A stretch of 35,055 nucleotides of DNA from Nevskiales bacterium (GTDB lineage Bacteria > Pseudomonadota > Gammaproteobacteria > Nevskiales > CAJXLF01). Location: assembly GCA_041630955.1 (NCBI GenBank), contig JBFKKS010000001.1, positions 1 through 35,055 of the forward strand. Direction: 5' to 3'. Shown here in pieces: positions 2,823-34,474 of the stretch. Positions within the stretch are counted from its first letter, which is position 1, and every line of letters starts with the position of its first letter. The notes below the pieces were generated by a model. That model saw only the letters and a program-made list of their open reading frames with translations, was not told the DNA's origin and did no database searches. Position numbers and translations under genes: made by a program.

Positions 2823-3674
2823 CTAGAAGTAGTCGTGACTACCAACCAGTAAATCGACCGCCATATCCTGTGCCAGGATATTGCTCAGTGTGAAACTGCG
2901 AGCCTTGGGGTCCGCCTTCAGGGCTTCGCGCAGCAGGCTATCATGTAGGCGCTGATCAAAGACAAGTCGTGCGTAATACTTGGCGTAGTACACCTTGGCC
3001 AGTTGGTTATTGCCTGCCGAGATTTTCAGGGCATTTTTGAAATAAGTCTCAGCGACCTCGGGTTTGCCGCCCAGGCTGGGCGGTATTTGTGCAGCCAGCA
3101 CACCCAGCATCATATGCGGGTTGCCATCATCATAGCGGGGCTTTAACTGGATGATGTAACGCAGCGTGGCTTCTATCTTGGGGACGTCGGCGATGGCGTT
3201 CCAGTCATCCGCATTGGCCTGTAGCCATACCGTCCAGGCTGTGGCGAAGCCGTAGAGCAAGGCCAAATCGTCTTCGTCGACATCTTCCAGTTCTTCTACA
3301 TAGTCTTCCAGCGAAGCACCGACGACATCATGCAAATCATCCAGTCCATGACTCAGTGCTTGTAATCCATAACGCTTGGCACGATCAGCCAGGCGCTTCT
3401 GGCGTTCCGTGTCTTTGGTGAAAGAGCTGGCATACAGTGCGTATAGCCGTGCCGCAGCGATGACCACGGGTACATTATCCGGGGCGGCTTCGACGGCGCC
3501 GTCCAATGCCAGCAGGTAGGATGGCAGGGCTTCACGTACCGTCTGGGGGTCATCGTGATTGAGGATGCCGTTGGTAAGGCCCAGGGCATAGCGTTTGGCT
3601 GCAGAGTCGATTGCCGTGCCCGGACAGGCGGTTAGCCCGAGGCAAAGCAAAGTGACAGCAAAAATTCGCAGCAT
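2823..3674 (-). CDS. TatT-like TPR/helical lipoprotein accessory component of TRAP transporters
   Basis: I chose the internal ATG at 3674, which gives MLRIFAVTLLCLGLTAC with a lipobox (LTAC). The rest is all-helical and repeat-like (LLALDGAVEAAPDN..., AKVYYAKYYARLVFD). It lies head of the same-strand dctPQM genes. The longest ORF extends to 3728. Confidence 0.65.
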   Translation of the reverse strand: MLRIFAVTLLCLGLTACPGTAIDSAAKRYALGLTNGILNHDDPQTVREALPSYLLALDGAVEAAPDNVPVVIAAARLYALYASSFTKDTERQKRLADRAKRYGLQALSHGLDDLHDVVGASLEDYVEELEDVDEDDLALLYGFATAWTVWLQANADDWNAIADVPKIEATLRYIIQLKPRYDDGNPHMMLGVLAAQIPPSLGGKPEVAETYFKNALKISAGNNQLAKVYYAKYYARLVFDQRLHDSLLREALKADPKARSFTLSNILAQDMAVDLLVGSHDYF

Positions 3675-11518: not shown

Positions 11519-12286
11519 TTAAGCGCTATCCCTGATCGCTGCGCGCACCTGGCGCAGCCGCAGGTTAAATGATGCCAGGTAGATCATCAGGAAGTAGGCG
11601 ATACACCATTCCTTCAGTTCCCCACTTGAGATGTTAAACCGTGGTGGTTGCGGATTGCCGGTGATGGCTGAATATATGCCCTCCGGCCAGGAGATGGCGA
11701 CCCCAAAGATGCCGGCTGGAAGGCAGACCATGGTCGGCCAAATCCAGAAGTTGATCCCTGCCGGATCAAGCGTGATTTGCTTGGAGCGTCGCCACAGAGG
11801 GGCAATGATGGCGCCAACCAGCATGCCCAGTGTGAGCAGGTTGCGCGGAAGCTGATCAAGCAGCGGGCCGTATTTGTCCGAGTTGTGCAGGTTGGTTTCC
11901 TGCTGATCATTGAATTGCTGCCAGGCTTCGCTGGTCTCCCAGCCGATCAGGTGTTGACCCCAACTGGCCTCCTCGCCGCCGAAATAGACACAGCCCAGCG
12001 TGCCCAGTATGAGCCATACCCATAGTCGCCAGTCAGATTGTTCCAGACCTCGCATGATCCAAAGGGTGTGGAGCCCGATCAGCACGGCGACGATCAAAAG
12101 CGCCATGGTGGATAACTCGTTAGTGCCGAGTTCCCCCCCGCCGAGGTATTTCTCGTACAGCGCACGGCTGATGCCGGCCAGGGTGAAATGCAGGGTTACA
12201 TAAGCCAGCGGCACCCATAGCCAGAGCCAGCGGGGCAGGTCACGAAAGTCATTGGCATGCACAAGCTTGGAAGAAGTTGGGATCAT
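11519..12286 (-). CDS. Uncharacterised Trp-rich polytopic membrane protein
   Basis: The 255-aa protein has about six hydrophobic helices (WLWLWVPLAYVTLHFTLAGI, WRLWVWLILGTLGCVYFGG, INFWIWPTMVCLPAGIFGVAISW) and a loop motif GGEEASWGQH. I do not recognise the family. Confidence 0.6.
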   Translation of the reverse strand: MIPTSSKLVHANDFRDLPRWLWLWVPLAYVTLHFTLAGISRALYEKYLGGGELGTNELSTMALLIVAVLIGLHTLWIMRGLEQSDWRLWVWLILGTLGCVYFGGEEASWGQHLIGWETSEAWQQFNDQQETNLHNSDKYGPLLDQLPRNLLTLGMLVGAIIAPLWRRSKQITLDPAGINFWIWPTMVCLPAGIFGVAISWPEGIYSAITGNPQPPRFNISSGELKEWCIAYFLMIYLASFNLRLRQVRAAIRDSA

Positions 12287-12631: not shown

Positions 12632-12823
12632 GGTGAGCACTCCATGCGCAAGCATTTCTGATTATTAGAGAGCTGTGATTATAGCGCTAAATCGGTCCGT
12701 CCAGTACTGTTTGTACATGGTGCATTGCACCGTATTAATTGACTCGCAGCGCAAATTCTACGAGCATATTTGGCCAAGCGAGCCGATTTTCTGTCGGCAT
12801 CCTCGATCCTGTTGGGGGAATTT

Positions 12824-13156
12824 ATGACTAAACGGACACGCGCACTTCAGGCGCTGATTGCGGCTGCACTGTTGTTGCCGGCCTTTGCCTGGGCAGCTGG
12901 TGACGCCCAGGCGGGCAAGATTAAAGCCGACACCTGCATGGGCTGCCATGGCATTGTTAACTACGCCAACGTGTACCCCAGTTATAGGGTGCCAATGTTG
13001 GGTGGCCAGCACCCGGAATATATCGTGGCGGCATTGAAGGCTTATAAGAGCGGTGAGCGCAGTCACAAGACCATGCATGCGCAGGCTGCGCAGATGAGTG
13101 AACAGGATATGGCCGATATTGCTGCCTTTCTAAGCAGCGCGCCGCAAGCCAAGTAG
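12824..13156 (+). CDS. Monoheme c-type cytochrome (class I, c4-domain-like)
   Basis: The signal peptide is MTKRTRALQALIAAALLLPAFAWA/AG. The single heme motif is CMGCH, and it also has GGQHPEYIVAALKAYKSGER...MHAQA. The longest ORF begins at 12770. Confidence 0.85.
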   Translation: MTKRTRALQALIAAALLLPAFAWAAGDAQAGKIKADTCMGCHGIVNYANVYPSYRVPMLGGQHPEYIVAALKAYKSGERSHKTMHAQAAQMSEQDMADIAAFLSSAPQAK

Positions 13157-13168
13157 GTTGGAACGATT

Positions 13169-13507
13169 ATGAAGAAGACTTTAATTAAAGCAGCGCTTGT
13201 TGCCGCGTTTACGAGTTTGGCAGCAAGTGTCCACGCCGCTGAGGCTACCAAGTCAATCGAACAACTCACGGCAAACTGTGCGGCTTGCCATGGGGCTACC
13301 GGCGTGAGTGCCAGTGCGGCTTTTCCAACCATTGCAGGGCAGCATCCCAGCTATCTAGAACGGGCATTGCTGGATTATCAATTGGGCGCCAGAAAGAATC
13401 CGATCATGGCCGGGCAGGTGGCCAACCTGACCAAAGCAGACATCAAGAAGCTAGCGGCATTCTATGCCGCACAGGAAGGCCCCCTGTACACACCTGGTAT
13501 GGACTAG
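13169..13507 (+). CDS. Monoheme c-type cytochrome (class I, c4-domain-like)
   Basis: The signal peptide is MKKTLIKAALVAAFTSLAASVHA/AE. The heme motif is CAACH, and it also has AGQHPSYLERALLDYQLGARKNPIMAG. It starts 12 nt after the previous cytochrome gene. Confidence 0.85.
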   Translation: MKKTLIKAALVAAFTSLAASVHAAEATKSIEQLTANCAACHGATGVSASAAFPTIAGQHPSYLERALLDYQLGARKNPIMAGQVANLTKADIKKLAAFYAAQEGPLYTPGMD

Positions 13508-13533
13508 GCAGGTTTAGTTTGAATGACGATCAA

Positions 13534-13556
13534 GGCCCGCACTGCGGGCCTTTTTT
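13534..13556 (+). terminator. Rho-independent terminator after the cytochrome c pair
   Basis: GGCCCGC (13534-13540), a short ACT loop and GCGGGCC (13544-13550) are followed by TTTTTT (13551-13556). Confidence 0.8.
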
Positions 13557-13597: not shown

Positions 13598-13625
13598 TTG
13601 TCTTGATCAAGGCTTGGGCTATATT
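13598..13625 (+). promoter_or_regulatory. Possible sigma70 promoter for the OM beta-barrel gene (TTGTCT-16 nt-TATATT)
   Basis: TTGTCT is at 13598-13603 and TATATT at 13620-13625. The element lies about 30 nt upstream of ATG 13655. It is a motif match only. Confidence 0.3.
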
Positions 13626-13654
13626 TCCATCAGGCAGATAAGGACGGATTGATC

Positions 13655-14275
13655 ATGCAGGAAGGCGGTGGATGCCTGTCACGAACTCGATCGCAGGTTT
13701 GGTGCCTGTTTGCCATGTTACTTGTCTGTGCAGACTCACATGCGGCCAACCTAAGTTATCGATATTTCGAAGCTGGCTATAGCCATACCGATATCTCCCT
13801 GGCGGATGGTAATGGTGGCTATATTCTGGGTAGCTGGCAGTTAGGCGAGCACTGGTTTGTGCTCGGTCAATATAGTGAGAACAACCTGCGCAGTAATCAG
13901 GCACCCTCCAAGGCCGACTTCGAGTACGTACGTGCAGGCTTGGGTTACCGGGCAGCAATGCCGGGGTGGTATCGCACTGACTGGTATGCGCTGATCAGCT
14001 ATAACGAAATTGACCTGACCGAATTCGAGGACGAAAGTGAAAGCGGCGAAGATTTTGAACTAGGCCTGAAGTACCGATGGCGCCCGGGACTGGTGGTCAC
14101 GGCAGCGGCGCGTTATTTCAACTCCAATATCGAATGTATTGATCTGCTCGCGGGGGAAGCAGGTTACAAGTTGGGTGCCAACTGGAACTTTACTCGCAAA
14201 ACCGGGGTCGCTATCAGTTACGAGGACATCCACCGTTTCAGCGAGTGGCGTATCGGCCTGCGAAAGCACTGGTGA
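13655..14275 (+). CDS. Small outer-membrane beta-barrel protein (OmpA-N/OmpW-like 8-strand class)
   Basis: The signal-like N-terminus is MQEGGGCLSRTRSQVWCLFAMLLVCADSHA/AN. It has alternating amphipathic strands (YRYFEAGYSHTDIS, WFVLGQYSEN, YVRAGLGYRA, WYALISYNEI, FELGLKYRW, VVTAAARYFN, GYKLGANWNF, GVAISYED) and an aromatic C-terminus (...GLRKHW). Confidence 0.7.
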   Translation: MQEGGGCLSRTRSQVWCLFAMLLVCADSHAANLSYRYFEAGYSHTDISLADGNGGYILGSWQLGEHWFVLGQYSENNLRSNQAPSKADFEYVRAGLGYRAAMPGWYRTDWYALISYNEIDLTEFEDESESGEDFELGLKYRWRPGLVVTAAARYFNSNIECIDLLAGEAGYKLGANWNFTRKTGVAISYEDIHRFSEWRIGLRKHW

Positions 14276-14425
14276 AACAGTGCCAGCTGGCGGTTAAGTA
14301 ACGCTTGGCAACGGGACCGCATCTAAGCGAATAAGCCTGATAAACCAGGGCAACCGAACTTTGTCGGTGAATGCGGACCTAACAGCGGGAAGCCCTGGCC
14401 GACGGGTTATCAACGAGTTATATCG

Positions 14426-14439
14426 ATTGCAACTGCAAT
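14426..14439. promoter_or_regulatory. Perfect 6-2-6 palindrome ATTGCA-AC-TGCAAT upstream of the RiPP precursor gene (candidate operator)
   Basis: Read directly from the sequence: ATTGCA at 14426-14431 and TGCAAT at 14434-14439. It lies 40 nt upstream of ATG 14479. Its function is not established. Confidence 0.3.
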
Positions 14440-14478
14440 CTTTCGGGGCAAGGCCCCAATGTGACAGGAGTTAGACAA

Positions 14479-14793
14479 ATGAGTATCAAGCAGGAAAAGA
14501 AAACGCCATTGGGCATGGTCGCGGGTGCGGCGCTGGTCACCTCGCTGGCCATGTCTTTGAACGCCCAGGCCAGTGAAAACCCGTTCCAGGTGAATGTGCT
14601 GAACAGCGGCTACCAGCTGGCTGATGCCCACGAAGGCAAGTGTGGTGAGGGTAAATGTGGTGAAGGTAAATGCGGCGAGAAGAAAGCCAAGGAAGCCAAG
14701 TGTGGTGAAGGCAAGTGCGGCGAAAAGAAAGCCAAGGAAGCCAAGTGTGGTGAAGGTAAATGTGGTGAAGGCAAGTGCGGCGAAAAGAAATAA
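14479..14793 (+). CDS. hvfA: Secreted Cys-repeat RiPP precursor, HvfA-like (EGKCG-repeat metallophore precursor)
   Basis: AGGAG (14466-14470) lies 8 nt before ATG 14479. The Sec signal is MSIKQEKKTPLGMVAGAALVTSLAMSLNAQA/SENPF. The C-terminal 53 residues are HEGKCGEGKCGEGKCGEKKAKEAKCGEGKCGEKKAKEAKCGEGKCGEGKCGEKK, containing 8 Cys, each in a K-C-G-E context. A DUF692 gene follows 18 nt downstream. Confidence 0.85.
   Translation: MSIKQEKKTPLGMVAGAALVTSLAMSLNAQASENPFQVNVLNSGYQLADAHEGKCGEGKCGEGKCGEKKAKEAKCGEGKCGEKKAKEAKCGEGKCGEGKCGEKK
14632..14790 (+). repeat. In-frame tandem coding repeats (15-nt EGKCG units; 45-nt EKKAKEAKCGEGKCG higher-order unit)
   Basis: A 32-nt perfect direct repeat, aagaaagccaaggaagccaagtgtggtgaagg, occurs at 14680-14711 and 14725-14756. 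The 45-nt units 14677-14721 and 14722-14766 differ at 5 positions, all synonymous third-codon positions. Confidence 0.9.
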
Positions 14794-14811
14794 TCTCACT
14801 TTGATCACCAG

Positions 14812-15675
14812 ATGAAAGTTTATCCGGTGCAGGGCGCCGGGCTTGGACTGCGGCGGGCCCTGATGGGCCCGCTGCTGGATCGAGTCTCGAATCCTTCCCC
14901 GCCAGTAATTGATTTTCTGGAAGTTGCGCCGGAAAACTGGATTGATATTGGTGGACTTCGAGGCCGGCAGTTCCGCGGGTTTACTGAGCGATTCCCCTTT
15001 GTTTGCCATGGCTTGTCGCTATCCATCGGCGGGCCGGCCCCTCTCGACCTGGCGTTTCTTCACAAGGTCAAAAGCTTTCTGGACGAACACGGGGTGCTTT
15101 GCTACAGCGAGCATCTGAGTTATTGCGGCGATGATGGCCATCTTTATGACCTGATGCCGATTCCCTTTACGGCAGAGGCCGTGACATACGTTGCCGGTCG
15201 CATTCGGCAGGTGCAGGCCATTCTGGAGCGCCGCATAGCCATTGAAAACGTCTCCTACTACGCCGCACCGGGCGCTGAGATGTCGGAACTCGAGTTTTTG
15301 CTGGCCGTGCTGGAAGAGGCCGATTGTGACTTGCTGCTGGACGTCAACAACATTGTCGTGAACAGCGTGAATCATCGTTACGATCCCGAGGCTTTCCTCA
15401 GGGCATTGCCTGCCGAGCGTCTAGCCTACGCACATGTTGCCGGCCACTATGTGGAAGCTGAAGACCTGCGGGTAGATACTCATGCGGCTGACGTCAGCGA
15501 GCCGGTGTGGGCATTGCTGGAAACCGCCTATGCCCATTTTGGGGTCTTTCCGACTCTACTGGAGCGCGATTTCAATATTCCTCCGCTGGACGAACTACTG
15601 CCCGAGGTGCAACGCATCAAAAGCTTACAGGCAAGCCACAGCCAAACAGACAGGGTGACCATCAATGCCGGATAG
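14812..15675 (+). CDS. hvfB: DUF692-family multinuclear non-heme iron oxidative enzyme (MNIO; MbnB/HvfB/BufB-like RiPP maturase)
   Basis: Characteristic DUF692 TIM-barrel motif series: [88 protein letters not shown]. The protein is 287 aa. Confidence 0.88.
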
Positions 15676-16441
15676 CCGGACCGGGAATAGGCCCGCCTTC
15701 CAGCAACTGCAATACGCATTTGCCGCGCATTTGCGCGACCCGGCAGTCAATCCTGCGCCAGTCGGTATCGAAGATCGCCGCATGCAGGTTTACCGTGATC
15801 TGTTCTACAACAACATGCAGGACTACCTGGCCAATGGTTTTCCCGTCCTGCGCAGCCTCTATGATGAGCAGGACTGGTTCGCCCTGGTACGCCAGTTCTA
15901 CGCACAACATCAATCGCACAGCCCCCAGTTTTACCAGATAGGCGCGGAGTTTCTGGCCTATCTGCAGGATGAGCATCAGGTGCGTGCCTGTGATCCGCCG
16001 TTCCTGTTTGAGTTGGCGCATTACGAGTGGGTGGAAATGATCCTGGCGATTGACCCGGCTAAACCGGTTACCGACCTGGATGCCGGGGGCGATTTGCTCG
16101 ACGGCTGCCCGGTAGTGACGCCGTGGCTTCGCAACCTCAGCTATGCCTTTGACGTACAGCGCATTTCCCCGTCGTATCGCCCCAGCGAGCCGCCGGCACA
16201 GCCAACTTTTCTAGCCGTATATCGCAAGCTTGATGACGAAATCGTCTTTTTGGAACTGAACGCCGTGACTGCGCAACTGTTGCAGCGTTTGATGGATGTA
16301 CAAGACAGGACGGGGCGACAGCTGCTGGAGGAGCTGGCCGTTGAAACGGGCGGGGATGCCCAGCAGTTGCTGGCCTTTGGCAGTGACTTGCTGGCAGATT
16401 TACGCGCAAAACAGGTGCTGCTCGGGACCCGCAAAGTCTGA
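15665..16441 (+). CDS. hvfC: DUF2063-family partner protein of MNIO enzymes (HvfC/BufC-like)
   Basis: The ATG at 15665 overlaps the hvfB stop by 11 nt. The N-terminus [15 protein letters not shown]...[24 protein letters not shown] is typical of DUF2063 proteins, which are encoded next to DUF692 genes. Confidence 0.8.
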
Positions 16442-16539
16442 GCCAGGCTTTTGCAGTTGGTTTGTTGTACTGAGCGACGCATTCTGTCGCCCGCTTATTT
16501 ACACTGGTCGTATGGTTTGTGTCTTCGCATGGAGTTCCT

Positions 16540-21198: not shown

Positions 21199-21891
21199 AT
21201 GCATCCCTTTGCTGAACTCAGCTATGACGAACTATTGGCCCTCGGGCAGCATCGATTTGCCCCGGCAGGCGGTACCAGGCCGGGTGTGTGGCTCCTGCAA
21301 CAAGGGGATACCCGCGCGGTTCTGAAGGATTACCACGTCTGCAACGGCTGGTTTCGCATTCTGATTGCGCCGCTGCTGGTATGGCGTGAGGTGAGCGCAC
21401 TGCGCAAGCTGGCCGGTATGCGGGGTATTCCGCAGTTGATCCAGCAGGTCGACCGCATCAGCTTTGTGATTGAATACCTGCCGGCCTCAAGGCTGGCGCG
21501 CAAGCAGCGTGGCGACTGGCCCGAGCCTGATTGGACACGTCTGTCTGAAGTGGTGGCTGAGATGCACGCGCGTGGCCTGGCCCACTGCGACCTGCGTCGT
21601 TCCAGTAACATTTTATTCAGCGAGGATGGCGAACCATTCTTGGTTGATTTTGCTGGCCATGTGAAACGTGGCGGTAGCTGGAACCTGCCCTGGAACTGGG
21701 CCTTTGCCCGGTTTTGTCGCGCAGACCGAACTGCCATATGCAAACTCAAGCACCGGGTAGCCCCTGACTCACTGACGGATGAGGAGTGTGCCCTGCTTGC
21801 ACAGCGTTCGTGGCTGGATGAGCTGGCGAGGGGCATTGGCGGTTCGGTACGCAAGCTAAGTCGTTTACTGTCAGGCAGTAGTAGCACCTGA
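21199..21891 (+). CDS. Small protein-kinase-like fold protein (RIO/Kdo-kinase/InaA-like)
   Basis: The catalytic-loop-like motif is HCDLRRSSNILF, followed by FLVDFAG (DFG-like). The N-lobe candidate lysine is in RAVLKDY. The 230-aa protein has no signal peptide and no TM helix. Confidence 0.6.
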   Translation: MHPFAELSYDELLALGQHRFAPAGGTRPGVWLLQQGDTRAVLKDYHVCNGWFRILIAPLLVWREVSALRKLAGMRGIPQLIQQVDRISFVIEYLPASRLARKQRGDWPEPDWTRLSEVVAEMHARGLAHCDLRRSSNILFSEDGEPFLVDFAGHVKRGGSWNLPWNWAFARFCRADRTAICKLKHRVAPDSLTDEECALLAQRSWLDELARGIGGSVRKLSRLLSGSSST

Positions 21892-24460: not shown

Positions 24461-26053
24461 ATGATTGACGAACAGACGTCGGCCCATCGTGAGCGCATTG
24501 GTGCGGGACGATCAGGCGTCGTCTATCGAGTACGTCGTCCAGAGGGAGACTTGGCCGTCAAGGTCTTTGCTGGTGATAGTGCATCCAAGCTGGTGCTGTA
24601 TATCCTGACCGGTGCACCTAATCCCTATAGCTGGAACGAAGCCGCCATCTGTTGTGCCCAACTGCGCCGACAGATCATGAGTTCACTGTGCCTGTACTGG
24701 TTTGCCGGCAAAATCAGGGTGGCCAACGCACCAGGCTGGGGCTGGAACGAGGAGCAACGCGCATTCGAGTTGCACACGGAATACGTCCAGGGCAGGCCGG
24801 CAGCGCTGCATACGCCGTTTTCGGCACAGCGTGATCATGAGCAGGGCGAACTGATCAGGGACATCATGCGGCCCCTGCAGTTGAGGCTGCGGGAAGCGGG
24901 CTGTGATGGCCTGCTCTGGCAGGCCGGATACGGTAATCCGGTTGCCACGAATAACCTTCTTCGCGTCGATGATGATCGCAGTGGCGCCCATTGGGTCTGG
25001 ATAGACATGGAATCCGGTGTGCCCGCTCTGGCCCCGTTAAATCCACTGACATTGCTGACTTTCTATTTGCCGATGTCTTTCAAGCACCGGCGGCCGCTGT
25101 TTGACGACATGGACACAGGGCGCCTGCAGGCTTACCTGAGGAAGCATGAGGATGGGTTGGTTAAGGTCGTGGGTGCTGAGCGCTATGCCGAGTTGCTGAA
25201 GCTGGCGGCGGAACTGGCAGAAATGCAGAGCCAGTGGAAAGCACAACGGCGCGGTCACCGCAGCATTGAGTATCAGTGGCGCAAGGGGCGACTGAGTGTT
25301 GAACAGGCAGAGTATTACCGCAAGAACCTGTTCCTGTGGTATCTGCGAGAGACGGGGCGTTTACTCAGAGGCCTGCCCAAGATCGCCGCGCAACTCCCGA
25401 TAGGCGTTTGGCGGCTCGTAAGGCAGGTAAGACCCCTTCTGGCTGTCAGGGCAATAGGCAAGATACTGGTTTCCCAGCGGTATCGTGAAATCGTGGCACG
25501 GATGTATGTGGCTCAGCGTATCGAGGCCTGGGAGCATCGAGGGCATATCAGTGATCAAGAAGGCGGCTTTTTGCATAGCCTGCTGGAAAGCGAGGATGAC
25601 AGTGCCTACATCACCGACTTTGGCATGCATATCGCGATCAAGCCGTTTGTGAAATTCCTCACCTGGGGCGTGGTGCCGACTCTCATGGCCTCGGGGGCCC
25701 TCAGTGTGCCAGCCGGGGGCTTCTTTATCGTGTTCGGTGGCATGCTGGGGCGCACCGCCTATACCCTGTACCGCATTATCGGTGCGACGCTGACCGGAGG
25801 CCATCGGCCCTGGGTTGCGCTGGCCGCTGGCTTCCTGCCCGTGCTGGGCAATGCCGCCTTTCCCATGCAGATTATTTCTTCCGGCAGTGAACGTGATGGA
25901 AAACTGGCACAGTTTATTGTTTACGATACCCTCAGTCGCCTGGCCCTGATGACACCCATCTGGGGCGGGCCGGATACGCGGATCGAGTTCTTTTTCAACG
26001 GTTTTGGCAACTGGATTGCGCGGGACCGTGCCGACGTCGACAAGTATCTCTGA
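24461..26053 (+). CDS. Uncharacterised protein: N-terminal atypical kinase-like domain fused to a C-terminal membrane domain
   Basis: It starts 2 nt after the plsB stop. It has a glycine-rich loop (IGAGRSGVVYRV), a VAIK-like motif (LAVKVF) and a hinge-like motif (TEYVQGRP). The catalytic region is degenerate (GNPVATNNLL, WIDMESG). Hydrophobic helices lie near the C-terminus (GGFFIVFGGMLGRTAYTLY, WVALAAGFLPVLGNAAFPMQII). Confidence 0.55.
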   Translation: MIDEQTSAHRERIGAGRSGVVYRVRRPEGDLAVKVFAGDSASKLVLYILTGAPNPYSWNEAAICCAQLRRQIMSSLCLYWFAGKIRVANAPGWGWNEEQRAFELHTEYVQGRPAALHTPFSAQRDHEQGELIRDIMRPLQLRLREAGCDGLLWQAGYGNPVATNNLLRVDDDRSGAHWVWIDMESGVPALAPLNPLTLLTFYLPMSFKHRRPLFDDMDTGRLQAYLRKHEDGLVKVVGAERYAELLKLAAELAEMQSQWKAQRRGHRSIEYQWRKGRLSVEQAEYYRKNLFLWYLRETGRLLRGLPKIAAQLPIGVWRLVRQVRPLLAVRAIGKILVSQRYREIVARMYVAQRIEAWEHRGHISDQEGGFLHSLLESEDDSAYITDFGMHIAIKPFVKFLTWGVVPTLMASGALSVPAGGFFIVFGGMLGRTAYTLYRIIGATLTGGHRPWVALAAGFLPVLGNAAFPMQIISSGSERDGKLAQFIVYDTLSRLALMTPIWGGPDTRIEFFFNGFGNWIARDRADVDKYL

Positions 26054-27722: not shown

Positions 27723-29036
27723 TCAGTTGGCGGGCAGTTCAATCTCGACCAGCGCGCCCCCCAGAGGGGATTTTCCAAGCCGGATGCGGCCGTCGTGGGC
27801 CTGCACGATCTCGGTTACGACAGCGAGGCCGATGCCTTGTCCCGGACTACGGCTATCGGCGCGAATCCCTCGTTGGAGTAGCGTTTCCCGGTCACTGTCG
27901 GGGAACCCGGGGCCATCATCATGCACTTGCAGGGAGATCGAGGCCGCTTGCTGGCTAGCCGTGATCTGGATGCGAGTTGAGGCAAAACGGGCTGCGTTAT
28001 CGAGCAAGTTGCCAAACACTTCCAGCAGGTCACCCTGCTCGAGACGAACCTGAGTAGTGGGGTCGACCTGGTTGTCGAATAGCAGTCCACGTTCGGCATG
28101 TACCTTGGATAGCGCACTGAGCAGTCGGTCAATGAGGGGTGCGACGGCAACCGGGGCGGCGAAACTGCGGCCGCTGCCGGCGACCGCCTTGCGCAGTTGG
28201 TAGTCAATCAACTGTTGCATGCGTTCCAGCGGTTCGGTGTCCAGCAATGGCTTGCCGAGTTGCCCGCGGATCGCCGCCAGCGGGGTTTTGAGGCTGTGCG
28301 CGAGATCGGCCAGGGCATTGCGGTAGCGTTGCTGGCGCACCCGTTCGTTACGCAGCAGTGCATTGAGTCCGCCTGCCAGTGGCTGAATTTCACTCGGGTA
28401 ATGTTCGCTTACGCTTTCCAGCTTGCCCGCCTCGACTGCACTGACCTCGCTGGCAAGCCTGCCCAGCGGCAGCAGACCCCAGTGCAGAATAGCCAGCAGC
28501 AGTGCCAGTAACAGCAGTGCGGCAAGGCTCAGGCTGAGCCACAGGCTTTGCCGGAATGCCCGGCGCTGCTTCAGGAAAGTGGCCGGCGATTCAATTACCG
28601 CGAGCCTGAAAAGCTGTTCCTTGTTGCCGACCATCCAGCTGAAACCGAAAACCAGGCTGAACGGTTCCTCACTGTATTGCGGTGACGAAAAGCGCCATTG
28701 CCCCACGTCGGCAGCCGGTACGTCCACGCTCAGGTCAAGGGTAGAGAAAGAGTGCCAGAGGATGGTGCCATCCCCCCCGGTGACGACCGCAGCCAGGCCC
28801 GAATCGGGCCGCTTCAGGCGTGGATCGGGCAAGTCCGCATCTTCAATGCTGACCTGCCCCGTATCGTTGATGTCCAGTGCGCCGAGCAGGGTATAGACCA
28901 GACCTTGCAGGCGGTCATTGACTGCGGCTTCAGCGCGTTGCTGGTCGGCCGCATCCAGCGCGAAGGCCGTCAGCAGAACAAACACCAGGAGCACACAGCC
29001 TGCGCTGAGCAACAGGCGGGCGCGCAGGGAGTTCAA
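27723..29036 (-). CDS. Two-component sensor histidine kinase (PhoQ/OmpR-partner class, periplasmic sensor)
   Basis: Two TM helices flank a periplasmic domain of about 150 aa. The H-box is LADLAHSLKTPLAAI, the N-box is FGNLLDNAARFA, and the G-boxes are DDGPGFP and GQGIGLAVV. There is a 4-nt overlap with the response regulator gene. Confidence 0.88.
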   Translation of the reverse strand: MNSLRARLLLSAGCVLLVFVLLTAFALDAADQQRAEAAVNDRLQGLVYTLLGALDINDTGQVSIEDADLPDPRLKRPDSGLAAVVTGGDGTILWHSFSTLDLSVDVPAADVGQWRFSSPQYSEEPFSLVFGFSWMVGNKEQLFRLAVIESPATFLKQRRAFRQSLWLSLSLAALLLLALLLAILHWGLLPLGRLASEVSAVEAGKLESVSEHYPSEIQPLAGGLNALLRNERVRQQRYRNALADLAHSLKTPLAAIRGQLGKPLLDTEPLERMQQLIDYQLRKAVAGSGRSFAAPVAVAPLIDRLLSALSKVHAERGLLFDNQVDPTTQVRLEQGDLLEVFGNLLDNAARFASTRIQITASQQAASISLQVHDDGPGFPDSDRETLLQRGIRADSRSPGQGIGLAVVTEIVQAHDGRIRLGKSPLGGALVEIELPAN

Positions 29037-29737
29037 GCCGTGGGGCTCCCGCCGTTATCCGGCAGACGCGGCAGGCGCATACGGTATCCCTGGCCACGCA
29101 GGGTTTCGATCGGATTGAGTTCGCCGTCGGGATCCAGCTTCTTGCGGAGGCGTTTGATGAATACCTCAATCACGTTGCTGTCGCGGTCTTCATCCTCGGC
29201 ATAGATATGCTCGGTAAGGCGGGTTTTCGACAATACCTCACCGGCGTGCAGCATCAGGCATTCCAACAGTCGGTATTCGTAGGCAGTGAGGCTGACTTGT
29301 GTGTCGTTCAGACTGACCTGCTGGCGCGCCGTATCCAGTGCAATCGGGCCACAACACAGGACCGACTGCGCCCAGCCGCCCTTGCGCCGCAGCAGACTGC
29401 GCAGACGGGCCTGCAGTTCTTCGTGGTGAAAGGGCTTCGTCAGGTAGTCATCGGCCCCGGCTTCCAGGCCCTCGACCTTGTCTTCCCAGTTACCTCTCGC
29501 GGTGAGTATGAGAATCGGGAAGTCGCGGCCTTCGGCGCGTACGCGCTTGATCACTTCCAGACCCGAGATGCCGGGCAGCCCTAGGTCGATCACCGCCACG
29601 TCTATCGGATATTCAGAGGCCAGGTACAGGCCTTCATCGCCATCCGGAGCGGCATCAACTACATAGCCCTGGGCCAGCAGCTGTTCAGTCAGCTGCTCCC
29701 GCAGTTCATCATGATCCTCGATAATCAGTGCGCGCAT
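29033..29737 (-). CDS. OmpR/PhoB-family response regulator (PhoP-like)
   Basis: The receiver domain reads MRALIIEDHDEL...VAVIDLGLPGISG...ILILTARG...GADDYLTKPF. The winged-helix output domain reads LTAYEYRLLECLMLHAGEVLSKTRL...IEVFIKRLRKKL...IETLRGQGYRM. Confidence 0.92.
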   Translation of the reverse strand: MRALIIEDHDELREQLTEQLLAQGYVVDAAPDGDEGLYLASEYPIDVAVIDLGLPGISGLEVIKRVRAEGRDFPILILTARGNWEDKVEGLEAGADDYLTKPFHHEELQARLRSLLRRKGGWAQSVLCCGPIALDTARQQVSLNDTQVSLTAYEYRLLECLMLHAGEVLSKTRLTEHIYAEDEDRDSNVIEVFIKRLRKKLDPDGELNPIETLRGQGYRMRLPRLPDNGGSPTA

Positions 29738-30804: not shown

Positions 30805-31836
30805 TCAGTCCCCGGTAACGGGCTTGTCCCACAGGTGGGCAGCATATTTCTGGTAACCCTGTACGTTATGCAGGCGGGGATCCTCATGGCTGTCCATTGG
30901 AATGATCTCGCCTTCAAGCAGCGGTTGCAGATAGGGCAACAGGGCCGCGCCGCCGCCGCCGGTAACGATAACGTGGTCGATGTCCCAGTCATCTGCCCAC
31001 AGGCTGTTGACGTCTGAGGCGATCTGCCCGGCCAGCTGTGAAAAGGCCTGTTCCGTAATGCGTTTGAGGCCGTAGGTCTTGCCATGGATCTTGATCGCAC
31101 CGCGCTCGACTGCCTCGTACAGGCGATACAACTCTACATGCACCCCGCTTTTTTCCTGCAATGCATTGGCAATGATCTTGAAAGCCTGGGCGATGCCGGA
31201 TTCGGTGGTACGGCTGCCGCGTTCCGAGTAGTGGGTGCGATCGCAGACACTGTAATCGGCAGTGCGGAAGCCGATATCAACAATGCCTATTTTTTCCTGC
31301 AGGAAGCGTGCATCGTGAACCTTGCCCAGGTCATTCAGCATCATGTTGAATGCGGAACCGAAAGGCTGTGGGATGACGCGCAGTTTCTCGATGTTAAACG
31401 AGACTTCGGTCTGCTTGTTATGCGTGTCCACGAGTATCAGGTCATGTTTGCCGAGCAGCATTTCGGTCAGTTCGTCCTTGTGCCGACGGTAATAACTGAT
31501 CGGCAGGCCGGTAACCACACGCAGGGCGTCTCCGTCTGGTCGGAGGTTGGCAATGGCAGTCAGTGCAAGAATCTTGGCATAGCGACTCATGAGCTGATTC
31601 TGGTCGAGTGTGGCTGATCGCACGCTGCTCTGGCGCTCGGCCAGTTCGCCGACAAACCAGGCCTTGCCCTCGGTAATGATATGCAGGTTGGTGACGCGCT
31701 CTTCCTGGTTGCGGATCAGGTCCTCGTGAAACTGCACATCGCTTGCCTCACCGATGACAGATTTGAATACACGCCAGTCATGGCCGTTGGTGACCTTGGT
31801 AAAGCCGAAGCCTATGTCGATGCCGTATGTCTGCAC
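30805..31836 (-). CDS. ParM/StbA-like actin-family ATPase (chromosomal, no ParR/parC partner seen)
   Basis: GTG start at 31836, with AGGAG 5 nt upstream (CTCCT at 31842-31846 on the + strand). Actin-fold motifs are phosphate-1 YGIDIGFGFTK, phosphate-2 IGIVDIGFRTADY and adenosine VIVTGGGGA. Confidence 0.75.
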   Translation of the reverse strand: MQTYGIDIGFGFTKVTNGHDWRVFKSVIGEASDVQFHEDLIRNQEERVTNLHIITEGKAWFVGELAERQSSVRSATLDQNQLMSRYAKILALTAIANLRPDGDALRVVTGLPISYYRRHKDELTEMLLGKHDLILVDTHNKQTEVSFNIEKLRVIPQPFGSAFNMMLNDLGKVHDARFLQEKIGIVDIGFRTADYSVCDRTHYSERGSRTTESGIAQAFKIIANALQEKSGVHVELYRLYEAVERGAIKIHGKTYGLKRITEQAFSQLAGQIASDVNSLWADDWDIDHVIVTGGGGAALLPYLQPLLEGEIIPMDSHEDPRLHNVQGYQKYAAHLWDKPVTGD

Positions 31837-31928
31837 GCTATCTCCTAATGATGATTACATTCACGGGGCAATCCCCGCAGTTGCTGCGTGGCCCGTATAA
31901 TGGCCGCCCGAACGGTTACTGCGCAAGG

Positions 31929-33605
31929 ATGTACAAAGAATACTTTGGTCTCCGGGATGTTCCCTTCTCGATTACCCCGGACCCCCGCTACGTCTACATG
32001 AGCCCCCACCACAGGGAGGCGCTGGGTCACCTGCTGTATGGCACCGGTGAAGATGGCGGCTTTGTGCAGATTACAGGAGAGGTGGGGACCGGCAAGACAA
32101 CCCTTATACGTACGTTGCTGGAACAGCAGCTGCCAGAGGTGGATGTGGCGCTGATCCTGAATCCGCGCCTCAATGTCCCCGAATTCCTGGCCGCGATCTG
32201 CGACGAATTGCGCGTGGCCAACCCGCGGCCAGCCGCCAGCCTCAAGCAGCTGGTCGATGCGCTCAATGCGCATCTGCTCAAGACCCATGCGCTGGGCAAG
32301 CGCACGGTGCTGATCGTGGACGAGGCTCAGCATCTCAGTCGTGATGTGCTGGAGCAGGTGCGCCTGCTGACCAACCTGGAAACCCATCGACACAAGCTGC
32401 TGCGCATCATGCTGGTGGGACAACCGGAACTGCGTGACCTGCTGGCCCGCAAAGACCTGCGCCAATTGGCCCAGCGCATCACGGCACGTTATCACCTCGC
32501 CAGTCTGAATCGTCAGCAAACCCGCGAGTATGTCATGCACCGCCTGCAGGTTGCTGGCGGCAAGCCAGCGCTGTTTACTAATGCCGCCTTACGCGACATT
32601 TACCGGCTCACACACGGCACCCCACGCCTGATCAACATCATCTGTGACCGGGCCCTGCTGGGCGCCTACGGGCAGGGCAAACCACAGGTTACGCGTGCCA
32701 TTCTGCGCCATGCTGCCCAGGAGGTGCTGGACCAGGGCGCGCGCTCGAGACGTGAAGGCAGAGTGTCTGAACTATGGCCCTGGCTGGCGATGTTGGGCGC
32801 CTCAGTAGCCCTGGGAGCCAGCCTCTACCTGGGCAAGCCTTACCTGGATCGTGTGTTACCGGCCGAGGCGGCAGCGGTGACGGCAGCCGATGACAGTCAG
32901 ACAAACCCCGAGCCCGTGGTTCCTCAGTCCGTAGCGGTGGTACCGCCGCCCACAGCTGAACCCGCACCGCCGTCGGCCGTACCCGGACCAGAGCCAACCA
33001 GGCCGGAGTACTGGCTGGCTGAAGCTGCAGCCCTGACCCAGCTCGCCAACCTCTGGGGTGTCAAGATGGCAGACGGGGATGGCATTCAATGCATGGATCT
33101 GAACAGCCGTGGGCTGCGTTGTCTATCGGGTTCAGCAGGCTGGTCGGAGTTGCGCGGCTTCAACCTGCCGGTCACGCTGACCTTGAACACTCCCGATGGT
33201 AATGCCTATGTTGCTGTTCGACGTCTTGAGTCAGGCAATGCCCTGCTGTTGAGTGACCGGGGCGAGACCACCGTGTCGATTGGCAGTCTCAGTGAACAGT
33301 GGACAGGGGACTTCCAGATCATCTGGCGGCCTCAGGTCAAGGCGACCTATATTGGACCCGATTCAGAGCAGAGCGCGATTCGCTGGCTTTTGAAGCGGCT
33401 GGAAATAGCCGAGGGTTCCGCTGCGGGGATTGTCAGCTTGCCTTACCGCTATGATGCCGCCGTGCGCGAGCGGGTACGGCGATTCCAGGACAGTCGCGGT
33501 CTTGAGGCCGATGGACTGGTGGGTGCACGCACCATGATTCACCTGAATGCCTTGGCACCGGAGGCTGGGGCGCCGGTGCTGGTGGCGAAGGCGGGTAAGG
33601 GCTGA
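31929..33605 (+). CDS. gspA: ExeA/GspA-type AAA ATPase with C-terminal peptidoglycan-binding domain
   Basis: MYKEYFGLRDVPFSITPDP is the typical ExeA start. Walker A is GEVGTGKTT and Walker B is VLIVDEAQ. A TM segment (WPWLAMLGASVALGASLYL) is followed by a Pro-rich linker. The PG_binding_1-like end reads RVRRFQDSRGLEADGLVGARTMIHLN. The ORF-track extension to 31827 overlaps the divergent gene and is not credible. Confidence 0.85.
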   Translation: MYKEYFGLRDVPFSITPDPRYVYMSPHHREALGHLLYGTGEDGGFVQITGEVGTGKTTLIRTLLEQQLPEVDVALILNPRLNVPEFLAAICDELRVANPRPAASLKQLVDALNAHLLKTHALGKRTVLIVDEAQHLSRDVLEQVRLLTNLETHRHKLLRIMLVGQPELRDLLARKDLRQLAQRITARYHLASLNRQQTREYVMHRLQVAGGKPALFTNAALRDIYRLTHGTPRLINIICDRALLGAYGQGKPQVTRAILRHAAQEVLDQGARSRREGRVSELWPWLAMLGASVALGASLYLGKPYLDRVLPAEAAAVTAADDSQTNPEPVVPQSVAVVPPPTAEPAPPSAVPGPEPTRPEYWLAEAAALTQLANLWGVKMADGDGIQCMDLNSRGLRCLSGSAGWSELRGFNLPVTLTLNTPDGNAYVAVRRLESGNALLLSDRGETTVSIGSLSEQWTGDFQIIWRPQVKATYIGPDSEQSAIRWLLKRLEIAEGSAAGIVSLPYRYDAAVRERVRRFQDSRGLEADGLVGARTMIHLNALAPEAGAPVLVAKAGKG

Positions 33606-34474
33606 TGTCATATATTCTTGATGCCCTGCAGCGCGCAGACCAGGAGCGCAACCTCGGTGAGGTGCCCAAGCTTGATATGGCCCTGCAGCCGGCCCGGGCG
33701 GGACAGCGCCAGAGCCGTTGGCCGACCGCAGTGCTGGTCCTGATCATTGCCAGCCTGGTGGCTACCATTGGCTGGCTGGTCGAGCGGGGCGTGTTGGATG
33801 ACCTGATTGGCGAGGAGGCGCAGTCCCAGGTAACGGCACAAGCATCGCAACAAACACCACCCTTACAGACAGCCGTAGCTGCCCCGACCCGGGCAGTGGC
33901 AAATGAACCGCCTGTTGTTGCTCCGCTCGCTGAACAGCCAGCCAGGCCCGTGGCCGATAATTCTCTCGAGCCGTCGACATTGGCGGCGCCGGTTTCACAA
34001 TCGCCGGCTGAGCAGGCCAGACAGCCCGAAGCTGCACGCTCGGCATTGCCCGCAACGTCCAAAGACAGGCCAGCGCCAGCAGTGGTTGCAGAGCCGCAAG
34101 CGGTCAAACCCGCTGTGCCGGGGGAGGATAAGCGCTCGCCGCGGCTGCCCACACCGACGGTGGCACCGGCACCGCCACCGAACTGGGCGCGAAATGGCCA
34201 GGCCCGGGAAACGGCAGAGCAAGATGCGCCTCCTCGTCAGCCGTTGATCTCTTATCTGGGGCTGCCCAAGACCACGCGCGACAGCATGCCTGCCCTGAAT
34301 ATGAATGCACATGTGTTCAGCACCAACCCGTCTCGCAGTTTTGTACTCATTAACACCAAGCGCTATCGCATCGGCGATTATCTGGCTGAAGGGCCGGAAT
34401 TGGTCGATATCCTGCCCGACGGCGCGGTGCTTGAGCATCGGGGCAAGCAGTTTCTGTTACCGGTCCAGAGATAG
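33605..34474 (+). CDS. gspB: GspB/ExeB-like general secretion pathway protein B
   Basis: The ATG overlaps the gspA TGA (ATGA-type coupling at 33603-33607). It has an MSYILDALQRADQERN start, one TM helix (WPTAVLVLIIASLVATIGWLV) and a long Pro/Ala-rich linker. The C-terminal domain reads LNMNAHVFSTNPSRSFVLINTKRYRIGDYL...ILPDGAVLEHRGKQFLL. Confidence 0.8.
   Translation: MSYILDALQRADQERNLGEVPKLDMALQPARAGQRQSRWPTAVLVLIIASLVATIGWLVERGVLDDLIGEEAQSQVTAQASQQTPPLQTAVAAPTRAVANEPPVVAPLAEQPARPVADNSLEPSTLAAPVSQSPAEQARQPEAARSALPATSKDRPAPAVVAEPQAVKPAVPGEDKRSPRLPTPTVAPAPPPNWARNGQARETAEQDAPPRQPLISYLGLPKTTRDSMPALNMNAHVFSTNPSRSFVLINTKRYRIGDYLAEGPELVDILPDGAVLEHRGKQFLLPVQR

Follow-up and report, generated by a model that had tools for sequence, protein, structure and literature searches.

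A predicted minimal hvfABC-type captophorin gene cluster in the genome of a Nevskiales bacterium is an ordinary member of a described family

Introduction

Does a compact locus that encodes a short secreted peptide with eight Cys residues, directly followed by two putative modification enzymes, represent an undescribed type of metal-binding peptide system, or is it a further example of a known one? The locus in question occupies positions 14479-16441 of a 35,055-nt stretch of DNA from a Nevskiales bacterium (contig JBFKKS010000001.1 of assembly GCA_041630955.1), which is hereafter called the window. An initial annotation had described it as a cassette for a peptide that is ribosomally synthesized and modified after translation (RiPP), composed of a precursor gene, a gene for a multinuclear non-heme iron oxidative enzyme (MNIO; DUF692) and a DUF2063 gene, and had proposed it as an unusual and undescribed variant. 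From its gene content and sequence motifs, we assign the locus as a genuine minimal hvfABC-type RiPP cluster ('captophorin', EGKCG/Lys-Cys group), and the cluster is an ordinary member of a large described family (the oxazolin/fontiphorin captophorins) rather than a new variant. We hold the HvfABC identity and the 5-thiooxazole chemistry that it implies with high confidence, and the physiological role with less.

Three intact genes of an hvfABC cluster

The cluster consists of three intact, co-directional open reading frames (ORFs) on the forward strand, to which all features described below belong unless stated otherwise. These are an hvfA-family gene for a 104-aa EGKCG/Lys-Cys captophorin precursor (14479..14793), hvfB, encoding the MNIO (14812..15675), and hvfC, encoding a partner protein with DUF2063 and RiPP recognition element (RRE) domains (PME1; 15665..16441). 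The tight packing noted initially was confirmed, with an 18-nt gap between the hvfA stop and the hvfB start and an 11-nt overlap of hvfB and hvfC. In sibling metagenome-assembled genome (MAG) contigs, the NCBI gene calls agree with these three ORFs, lengths included. The identical locus was found in six MAG contigs, and the exact proteins are present in NCBI and Logan, with no names attached.

Profile searches gave significant matches for both enzymes. HvfB matches Pfam PF05114 (MbnB_TglH_ChrH) with 338 bits and, over its full length, the NCBIfam equivalog NF003818 with 430.3 bits (cutoff 360). It scores below the cutoffs of the BufB (252.6 bits versus 310), MbnB (44 bits versus 325), ApyH and ChrH models, and its nearest relative in the PDB is 3BWW, an MNIO of Histophilus somni (E=1.6e-72). 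In an alignment of the window HvfB with 80 orthologues (81 sequences), the iron-ligand motif residues H66, E100, H101, E145, N146, D177, N180, H208, H212, D222, H224 and E251 are invariant. According to the 3BWW alignment and the published mutagenesis, N180, D222 and H224 are the counterparts of N175, D242 and H244 of Haemophilus influenzae HvfB, the site-3 residues that are essential and whose substitution kills activity. In addition, 79-81 of the 81 sequences share R14/R15 and D253/F254, which correspond, as matched by motif position only, to R15/R16 and D249/F250 of FonB, the MNIO of Fontimonas thermophila. In FonB, R15/R16 recognize Glu-1 of the substrate site, D249 is the catalytic base, and F250 contacts Lys-3 and Gly-5; the R-R and D-F residues form the specificity and catalytic-base signature of Lys-Cys MNIOs. 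HvfC contains both PF09836 (DUF2063; 91 bits) and PF22106 (NGO1945_C, RRE-containing; 89 bits), which Pfam currently labels HvfC_N and HvfC_C, and matches the NCBIfam equivalog NF050145 with 298.2 bits (cutoff 142). Its nearest PDB relative is 3DEE (NGO1945; E=1e-6).

The start of hvfA was assigned to the ATG at 14479, which is preceded at a distance of 8 nt by a Shine-Dalgarno sequence AGGAG (14466..14470) visible by direct reading. A GTG at 14461 would be an alternative start, but it lacks comparable Shine-Dalgarno support, and the ATG is favoured because the homologues begin at the equivalent Met, as do the NCBI calls of the 104-aa form in the sibling contigs. Residues 1-31 (14479..14571) form a predicted Sec-type signal peptide with a basic n-region (MSIKQEKKTP), a 16-residue h-region (LGMVAGAALVTSLAMS) and a c-region in which cleavage is predicted between LNAQA and SE, as judged by a heuristic check of the three regions. 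The hydropathy peak lies at aa 10-26, and the signal peptide is kept across the HvfA homologues, of which 172 were detected at E<=1e-3.

Downstream of the predicted cleavage site lies the conserved leader SENPFQVNVLNSGYQLADAH (14572..14631), the probable HvfC recognition region. Among the best 120 of the 172 homologues, which we used for a survey of the precursors, the motif NPF..L..GY is present in 103; F36, G44 and Y45 are invariant among the homologues, and conservation is 90% or higher for N34, P35 and L41. The recognition role is inferred, because single-site changes are tolerated in the leader of the F. thermophila precursor FonA (PMC12668002).

The remaining 53 residues (aa 52-104; 14632..14790) constitute the core, which contains nothing but K (16), G (14), E (11), C (8) and A (4). 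It reads in register as a series of 5-mers, namely three EGKCG, EKKAK, EAKCG, EGKCG, EKKAK, EAKCG and two EGKCG, followed by a terminal EKK, and the underlying DNA shows tandem repeats with periods of 15 and 45 nt across 14632-14777. All eight Cys residues sit in [G/A]-K-C-G-E, within six EGKCG and two EAKCG units, and are predicted modification sites. Each of the eight sites reads E-[G/A]-K-C-G, the Cys being followed by a small residue, which FonBC demands, and all agree with the site rules established experimentally for FonBC (position 1, Glu or any other residue except Arg; 2, Gly/Ala; 3, Lys; 4, Cys; 5, Gly). Moreover, the 12-mer EAKCGEGKCGEK, which occurs twice in the core, is identical to part of FonA67-80, a fragment on which nuclear magnetic resonance (NMR) established two 5-thiooxazoles. 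A Pfam search of the precursor gave no match. The NCBIfam model NF050137 (KCGExKCG_twice, the HvfA-family repeat domain) gave 63.8 bits against a cutoff of 19.5. On the opposite strand, a 199-aa ORF antisense to hvfA (14410-15009) represents an artefact of the repeat composition and not a gene.

Family membership, intact catalytic and specificity residues, motifs of proven substrates and the operon architecture are thus present at this locus. The corresponding parts of the initial annotation, that is, an MNIO-DUF2063 RiPP cassette with an HvfA-type precursor, a good Shine-Dalgarno sequence, a Sec-type signal peptide cut after AQA, a short leader and a 53-residue E/G/K/C/A tail with all eight Cys in K-C-G-E, were all borne out. 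The family models that it had named gave a divided result, with HvfB and HvfC above and the HvfA equivalog and BufB below the respective cutoffs. A lack of DUF692 and DUF2063 hits, which by that annotation would have spoken against the cassette, is clearly not what the profile searches showed.

Chemistry of the family and proposed mechanism

Manley et al. (PMC11252979) showed that, in nontypeable H. influenzae (NTHi), HvfBC modifies the six EGKCG Cys residues of the Sec-exported HvfA with a change of -4 Da each. The product, oxazolin, binds Cu(I) and shows a chromophore at 302 nm. HvfA was shown to be exported by Sec and cut by signal peptidase I, and the fourth gene of the hvf operon encodes a DoxX protein without known function (PMC11252979). 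Gadgil et al. (PMC12668002, ACS Chem Biol 2026) introduced the class name captophorins, reported >24,000 MNIO-DUF2063 (MNIO-PME1) loci, present in about half of the Pseudomonadota reference genomes, and characterized fonABC of F. thermophila as a minimal three-gene cluster without DoxX. Leprevost et al. (PMC12452194) described a Buf_EGKCG/oxazolin family of approximately 2,000 precursors, in whose clusters RiPP, MNIO, DUF2063 and DoxX genes occur "in various combinations". With this number of loci, and with HvfA/B/C names now held by NCBIfam and Pfam, the captophorin family is no longer sparsely characterized, as the initial annotation had supposed it to be.

The structure of the modified residue has also been revised. 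Alkylation-assisted heteronuclear multiple bond correlation (HMBC) analysis of fontiphorin, oxazolin and gonophorin identified a 5-thiooxazole and was incompatible with oxazolone/thioamide (PMC12668002). This reassignment was made in 2025-2026 by two groups and is accepted by the Rosenzweig group, the original authors, so the oxazolone/thioamide chemistry assumed for the locus at first has to be replaced. The same applies to one of the readouts suggested for a co-expression experiment: loss of alkylatable thiols would be the wrong signal, because 5-thiooxazoles are readily alkylated by iodoacetamide (PMC12668002). The other two, a mass decrease of 4 Da for each Cys and a near-UV band, are valid.

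By analogy with these homologues, on which our view of modification, export, Cu binding and physiological role depends, we propose that HvfA is made as a 104-aa pre-peptide and is bound in the cytoplasm by HvfC, probably via the conserved NPF...SGY leader. HvfC of the H. influenzae system has the further role of enabling the active Fe(II)/Fe(III) state; the Rosenzweig group found a mixed-valent diiron cluster to be the active cofactor, and this is formed only with HvfC present. The O2-dependent HvfB, with its Fe(II)/Fe(III) centre, would then catalyse the four-electron oxidation of the Cys in each Lys-Cys-Gly to a 5-thiooxazole, with -4 Da for each conversion and approximately -32 Da for up to eight. 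The modified peptide would be exported by Sec and cut after AQA by signal peptidase I, to give a Lys/Glu-rich periplasmic peptide of 73 aa (predicted unmodified mass 7582.5 Da, from which full modification would subtract 32.25 Da). Paired thiooxazole N/S ligands could bind Cu(I) at about one Cu per two heterocycles, or approximately four Cu per peptide. The Cu-loaded peptide may aggregate, which would fit a sequestration role, and sequestration of excess copper, possibly of other soft metals too, appears to be the likeliest function. Taken by analogy, the product of the locus is very probably a periplasmic copper-binding peptide; Cu(I) binding has been demonstrated for both oxazolin and fontiphorin.

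Several observations weigh against this interpretation. The precursor reaches only 54 bits with the HvfA equivalog NF050188 (cutoff 95), and it should therefore be regarded as a family member and not as an orthologue of NTHi HvfA. An AlphaFold2 model of the unmodified precursor, run with regard to the beta-helix that has been reported, yielded no confident fold, with a mean predicted local distance difference test (pLDDT) score of 47.6 and approximately 40 in the core. Pfam scans of 32 further ORFs on the 35-kb contig detected no DoxX, regulator or copper-resistance gene, and a consensus scan recognized no promoter directly upstream of hvfA; in the 203 nt between the stop of the preceding gene (14275) and hvfA (14479), it found nothing promoter-like or terminator-like. 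Finally, the locus is known here from sequence alone, and, among the characterized homologues too, neither the physiological role (detoxification or acquisition) nor the stoichiometry of Cu binding is settled.

Relationship to characterized systems

The most similar system is fonABC, since both are bare precursor-MNIO-DUF2063/PME1 clusters without DoxX. FonA has seven EAKCG/EGKCG sites and the window HvfA eight, the 12-mer is common to both, and the R-R and D-F specificity residues are found in both FonB and the window HvfB. The two differ in species and in precursor length, the window HvfA having 104 aa, whereas FonA numbering extends to at least residue 124. Both hosts are gammaproteobacteria, and one of the loci that share synteny with the window (L058; see below) is labelled Nevskiales, the order to which F. 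thermophila presumably also belongs.

The hvfABC-hvfX operon of NTHi shares with the window the Sec signal peptide, the EGKCG repeats and HvfB and HvfC proteins above the NCBIfam cutoffs. It differs in having hvfX (DoxX), in the six modifiable Cys residues of its HvfA, compared with eight here, and in belonging to a pathogen rather than to an environmental bacterium. Furthermore, the window HvfA's N-terminal region contains no Cys and hence cannot form a disulfide such as C38-C43 of NTHi HvfA. The gonophorin cluster ngoABC of Neisseria gonorrhoeae shares the enzyme pair and, as predicted for the window, has a product of the 5-thiooxazole class; the window HvfC has both domains of NgoC (NGO1945, 3DEE), but is distant from it in sequence.

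Bufferins (BufABC), which are 5-thiooxazole peptides that buffer periplasmic copper (PMC11626156), resemble the window system in Sec export, in the MNIO mega-cluster to which the enzyme belongs and in the type of PME1 partner. However, bufferin precursors are DUF2282 or Buf2 proteins, whereas the window precursor is free of DUF2282 and falls into the Lys-Cys repeat group; moreover, the window HvfB does not reach the BufB cutoff, and the window has no sigma/anti-sigma (NrsF) genes. Methanobactin (MbnABC) is more remote. There, too, an MNIO oxidizes Cys residues in a ribosomally made peptide, and the resulting heterocycle, which has a sulfur ligand, binds Cu(I), but the product is an oxazolone/thioamide, the leader peptide is not a signal peptide, and the partner is MbnC, accompanied by dedicated export and TonB-dependent uptake genes, instead of a DUF2063 protein.

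Comparison with related precursors and loci

Three features had been put forward as signs of an undescribed variant: the Lys/Ala-rich EKKAKEA spacers, the missing DoxX-type or regulator gene and the outer-membrane barrel encoded upstream. All three are ordinary among the relatives or are not conserved in them. K/A/E-rich spacers between EGKCG pairs were found in nearly all of the 120 surveyed homologues. EKKA[K/E]EAKCG is present in four of them (P0002, P0008, P0076 and P0117), in three cases as exactly EKKAKEAKCG. A 10-residue spacing of Cys occurs in 59 of the 120, and eight Cys residues, found in 25, are the second most common class. An unusual spacer or repeat architecture was therefore rejected; the spacers are the norm of the family. 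Some homologues (P0010, P0024, P0030, P0106 and P0110) carry an EF-hand calcium-binding insertion between EGKCG repeat blocks, and Buf_EGKCG/EF-hand fusions have already been described (PMC12452194).

For gene order, we examined 80 related loci (L001-L080) from species-representative genomes. hvfB adjoins hvfC in all 80, and an hvfA-like ORF lies upstream of hvfB-hvfC in at least 57. Approximately 75 loci had enough downstream sequence for an assessment of DoxX; hvfC has a co-directional DoxX gene behind it in 42 of these, and 33 (~44%) have none there. It is correct that neither DoxX nor a regulator is present in the window, but this census, together with fonABC and the combinations listed in PMC12452194, led us to reject the idea that lack of DoxX sets the cluster apart. 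DoxX does not define the hvf class.

The closest relative is a Salinisphaerales MAG locus (L001; 81% HvfB identity), in which rmuC directly follows hvfC, as it does in the window. L001 and L058 are the only loci that share with the window the order of two c-type cytochrome genes, hvfABC and rmuC. The upstream barrel gene (13649-14275) does exist; it encodes an outer-membrane protein (OMP) of 208 aa with a PF13505 domain, a signal peptide and a C-terminal Trp, and weakly resembles Ax21/OmpO (51 bits versus a cutoff of 250). However, in none of the 80 loci did tblastn find a homologue of it at up to 4 kb from hvfB, and its position is occupied by a macro-domain-like gene (named from its sequence alone) in L001 and by a gene of 627 aa in L058. 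Because it is absent from the 80 loci and replaced in the syntenic relatives, the OMP gene is a lineage-specific neighbour, and it was rejected as a component of the system.

The cluster is thus one more environmental example, from an uncultured gammaproteobacterium whose closest relative in our search is a Salinisphaerales-labelled MAG, in a family of tens of thousands of loci, and current NCBIfam and Pfam models would annotate it automatically. It is an example of how DoxX and regulators can be dispensed with as neighbours, and an eight-site bare ABC cluster could serve as a compact substrate for studies of 5-thiooxazole installation. Otherwise, its practical value is small, and it opens no new question.

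Alternative interpretations

The function proposed above could be wrong in its emphasis on copper. The peptide may act mainly against gold, silver, mercury or another stress, or as a thiol/redox buffer. Related MNIO-DUF2063 GIG operons reportedly respond to gold as well as copper, oxidative-stress links have been reported for hvf (PMC11252979), MerC fusions exist among bufferins (PMC12452194), and a 5-thiooxazole keeps a reactive thiol-type sulfur. Against this stands the fact that every biochemically tested member binds Cu(I), and we consider such a role unlikely.

A second possibility is that the same cluster encodes a chalkophore, that is, a peptide that is released, scavenges scarce copper and is re-imported in the manner of methanobactin. 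Manley et al. listed copper acquisition among the possibilities for oxazolin (PMC11252979), and the two c-type cytochrome genes upstream, whose synteny extends to L001 and L058, could hint at a copper-requiring respiration. Yet the window contains no TonB-dependent receptor, periplasmic binding protein or Mbn-type exporter, and HvfB falls far short of the MbnB model (44 bits versus 325). The predicted product, a Sec-exported peptide of 73 aa, has no known route across the outer membrane, and related pathways are induced by metal excess rather than by starvation. In addition, the cytochrome genes end at a strong terminator (13532-13552), which parts them from the cluster, and the intervening genes differ in the relatives. 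We therefore judge a scavenging function to be distinctly improbable and sequestration of excess copper to remain the better explanation.

It is also conceivable that the OMP gene and hvfABC are co-transcribed and that the barrel aids the release or surface anchoring of the peptide. All four genes are co-directional, the sole sigma-70-like promoter match found upstream by the consensus scan (13598..13625) precedes the OMP gene, with an uncertain link to hvfABC, no terminator-like site separates the OMP gene from hvfA, and NTHi HvfA has been described as a secreted factor (PMC11252979). These points are offset by the result for the 80 loci, none of which has a homologue, by the other genes that stand in its place in the two syntenic relatives, and by the 203-nt intergenic gap, which contrasts with the tight packing of hvfABC. 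Furthermore, small barrels of approximately 200 aa are not known to act as peptide exporters. Coupling to the OMP is very unlikely, and the three-gene cluster remains the preferred unit.

Still less credit can be given to the view that HvfBC installs methanobactin-like oxazolone/thioamide pairs with loss of the thiols. This was the original assignment for oxazolin (PMC11252979), and the NCBIfam names still carry it; however, it is contradicted by the HMBC data on three products, its original authors accept the reassignment, the absorbance at ~305 nm differs from that of methanobactin (340/390 nm), and the window HvfB has the FonB-type specificity residues. Lastly, the low complexity of the sequence and the opposite-strand shadow ORF (14410-15009) might suggest that hvfA is a chance ORF or the cluster a decaying remnant, but this can practically be dismissed in view of the curated NF050137 match, the 172 homologues with conserved signal peptide and leader, the three intact ORFs with all catalytic residues and the identical locus in six MAG contigs.

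Regulation and flanking regions

A weak terminator-like hairpin after hvfC (16474..16490), recognized by the consensus scan only, may mark the end of the operon. Upstream of hvfA, its untranslated leader contains a small G+C hairpin, GGGGC-AAG-GCCCC (14445..14457), close before the Shine-Dalgarno sequence, for which the comparisons of leader hairpins give weak evidence. A further hairpin is present at 14427-14438. The hairpin at 14445..14457 has counterparts in L001 (~3655-3668) and L058, which share its stem core GGGC/GCCC and differ in their loops. Across the loci, which are phylogenetically non-independent, a hairpin ends between -38 and -26 from the hvfA ATG in 23 of 56 leaders, compared with 17 of 88 control genes (odds ratio 2.9, p=0.007), but the window's own hairpin ends at -22, outside this band. 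The best-hairpin energies are similar in leaders (-9.0 kcal/mol) and in the adjacent control region (-8.1 kcal/mol), and the stems differ in sequence between loci. T-runs after some of them (L030, L035 and L051) give these the look of terminators, placed directly before the Shine-Dalgarno sequence. An Rfam search of the whole window gave no family match, and the hvfA leader folds no better than shuffled sequences (z=-0.51). The hairpin could be a leader/attenuator, an mRNA-stabilizing 5' hairpin or the terminator of a neighbour, and its enrichment is a weak lead and not a finding. There is a slender chance that hvfABC in this lineage has no promoter of its own and either forms a four-gene unit with the OMP gene or is controlled post-transcriptionally by a conserved structured leader hairpin. 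If true, this would amount to a regulatory or export layer undescribed for captophorin clusters.

Elsewhere on the contig, the same Pfam scans of 32 ORFs detected no ECF sigma factor and no TonB-dependent receptor. No second precursor was found in the window, nor any G+C anomaly that would point to horizontal transfer. The rest of the contig consists of housekeeping genes, including those for a TRAP transporter, prfC, parB, mlaA, plsB and others.

In the window, a tandem pair of small c-type cytochrome genes (12770-13507) precedes the OMP gene, with counterparts at 2019-2744 in L001 and at 987-1576 in L058. Their synteny with hvfABC-rmuC, with other genes inserted between, probably reflects an inherited gene order without a functional link.

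Among the remaining ORFs, a predicted membrane protein of 255 aa without a Pfam family (11519-12286) is encoded between prfC and an acylphosphatase gene and is kept in the sibling MAG contigs. On either side of plsB lie two sizeable ORFs, 21199-21891 (230 aa) and 24461-26053 (530 aa), for which Pfam gave no match at E<=1e-4; the latter begins directly after plsB. At 30805-34474, an actin-like ParM/ALP_N gene is divergent from genes for a GspA-like AAA ATPase with a peptidoglycan-binding domain and for T2SS-B (GspB), and this neighbourhood is preceded by a two-component system (27723-29737).

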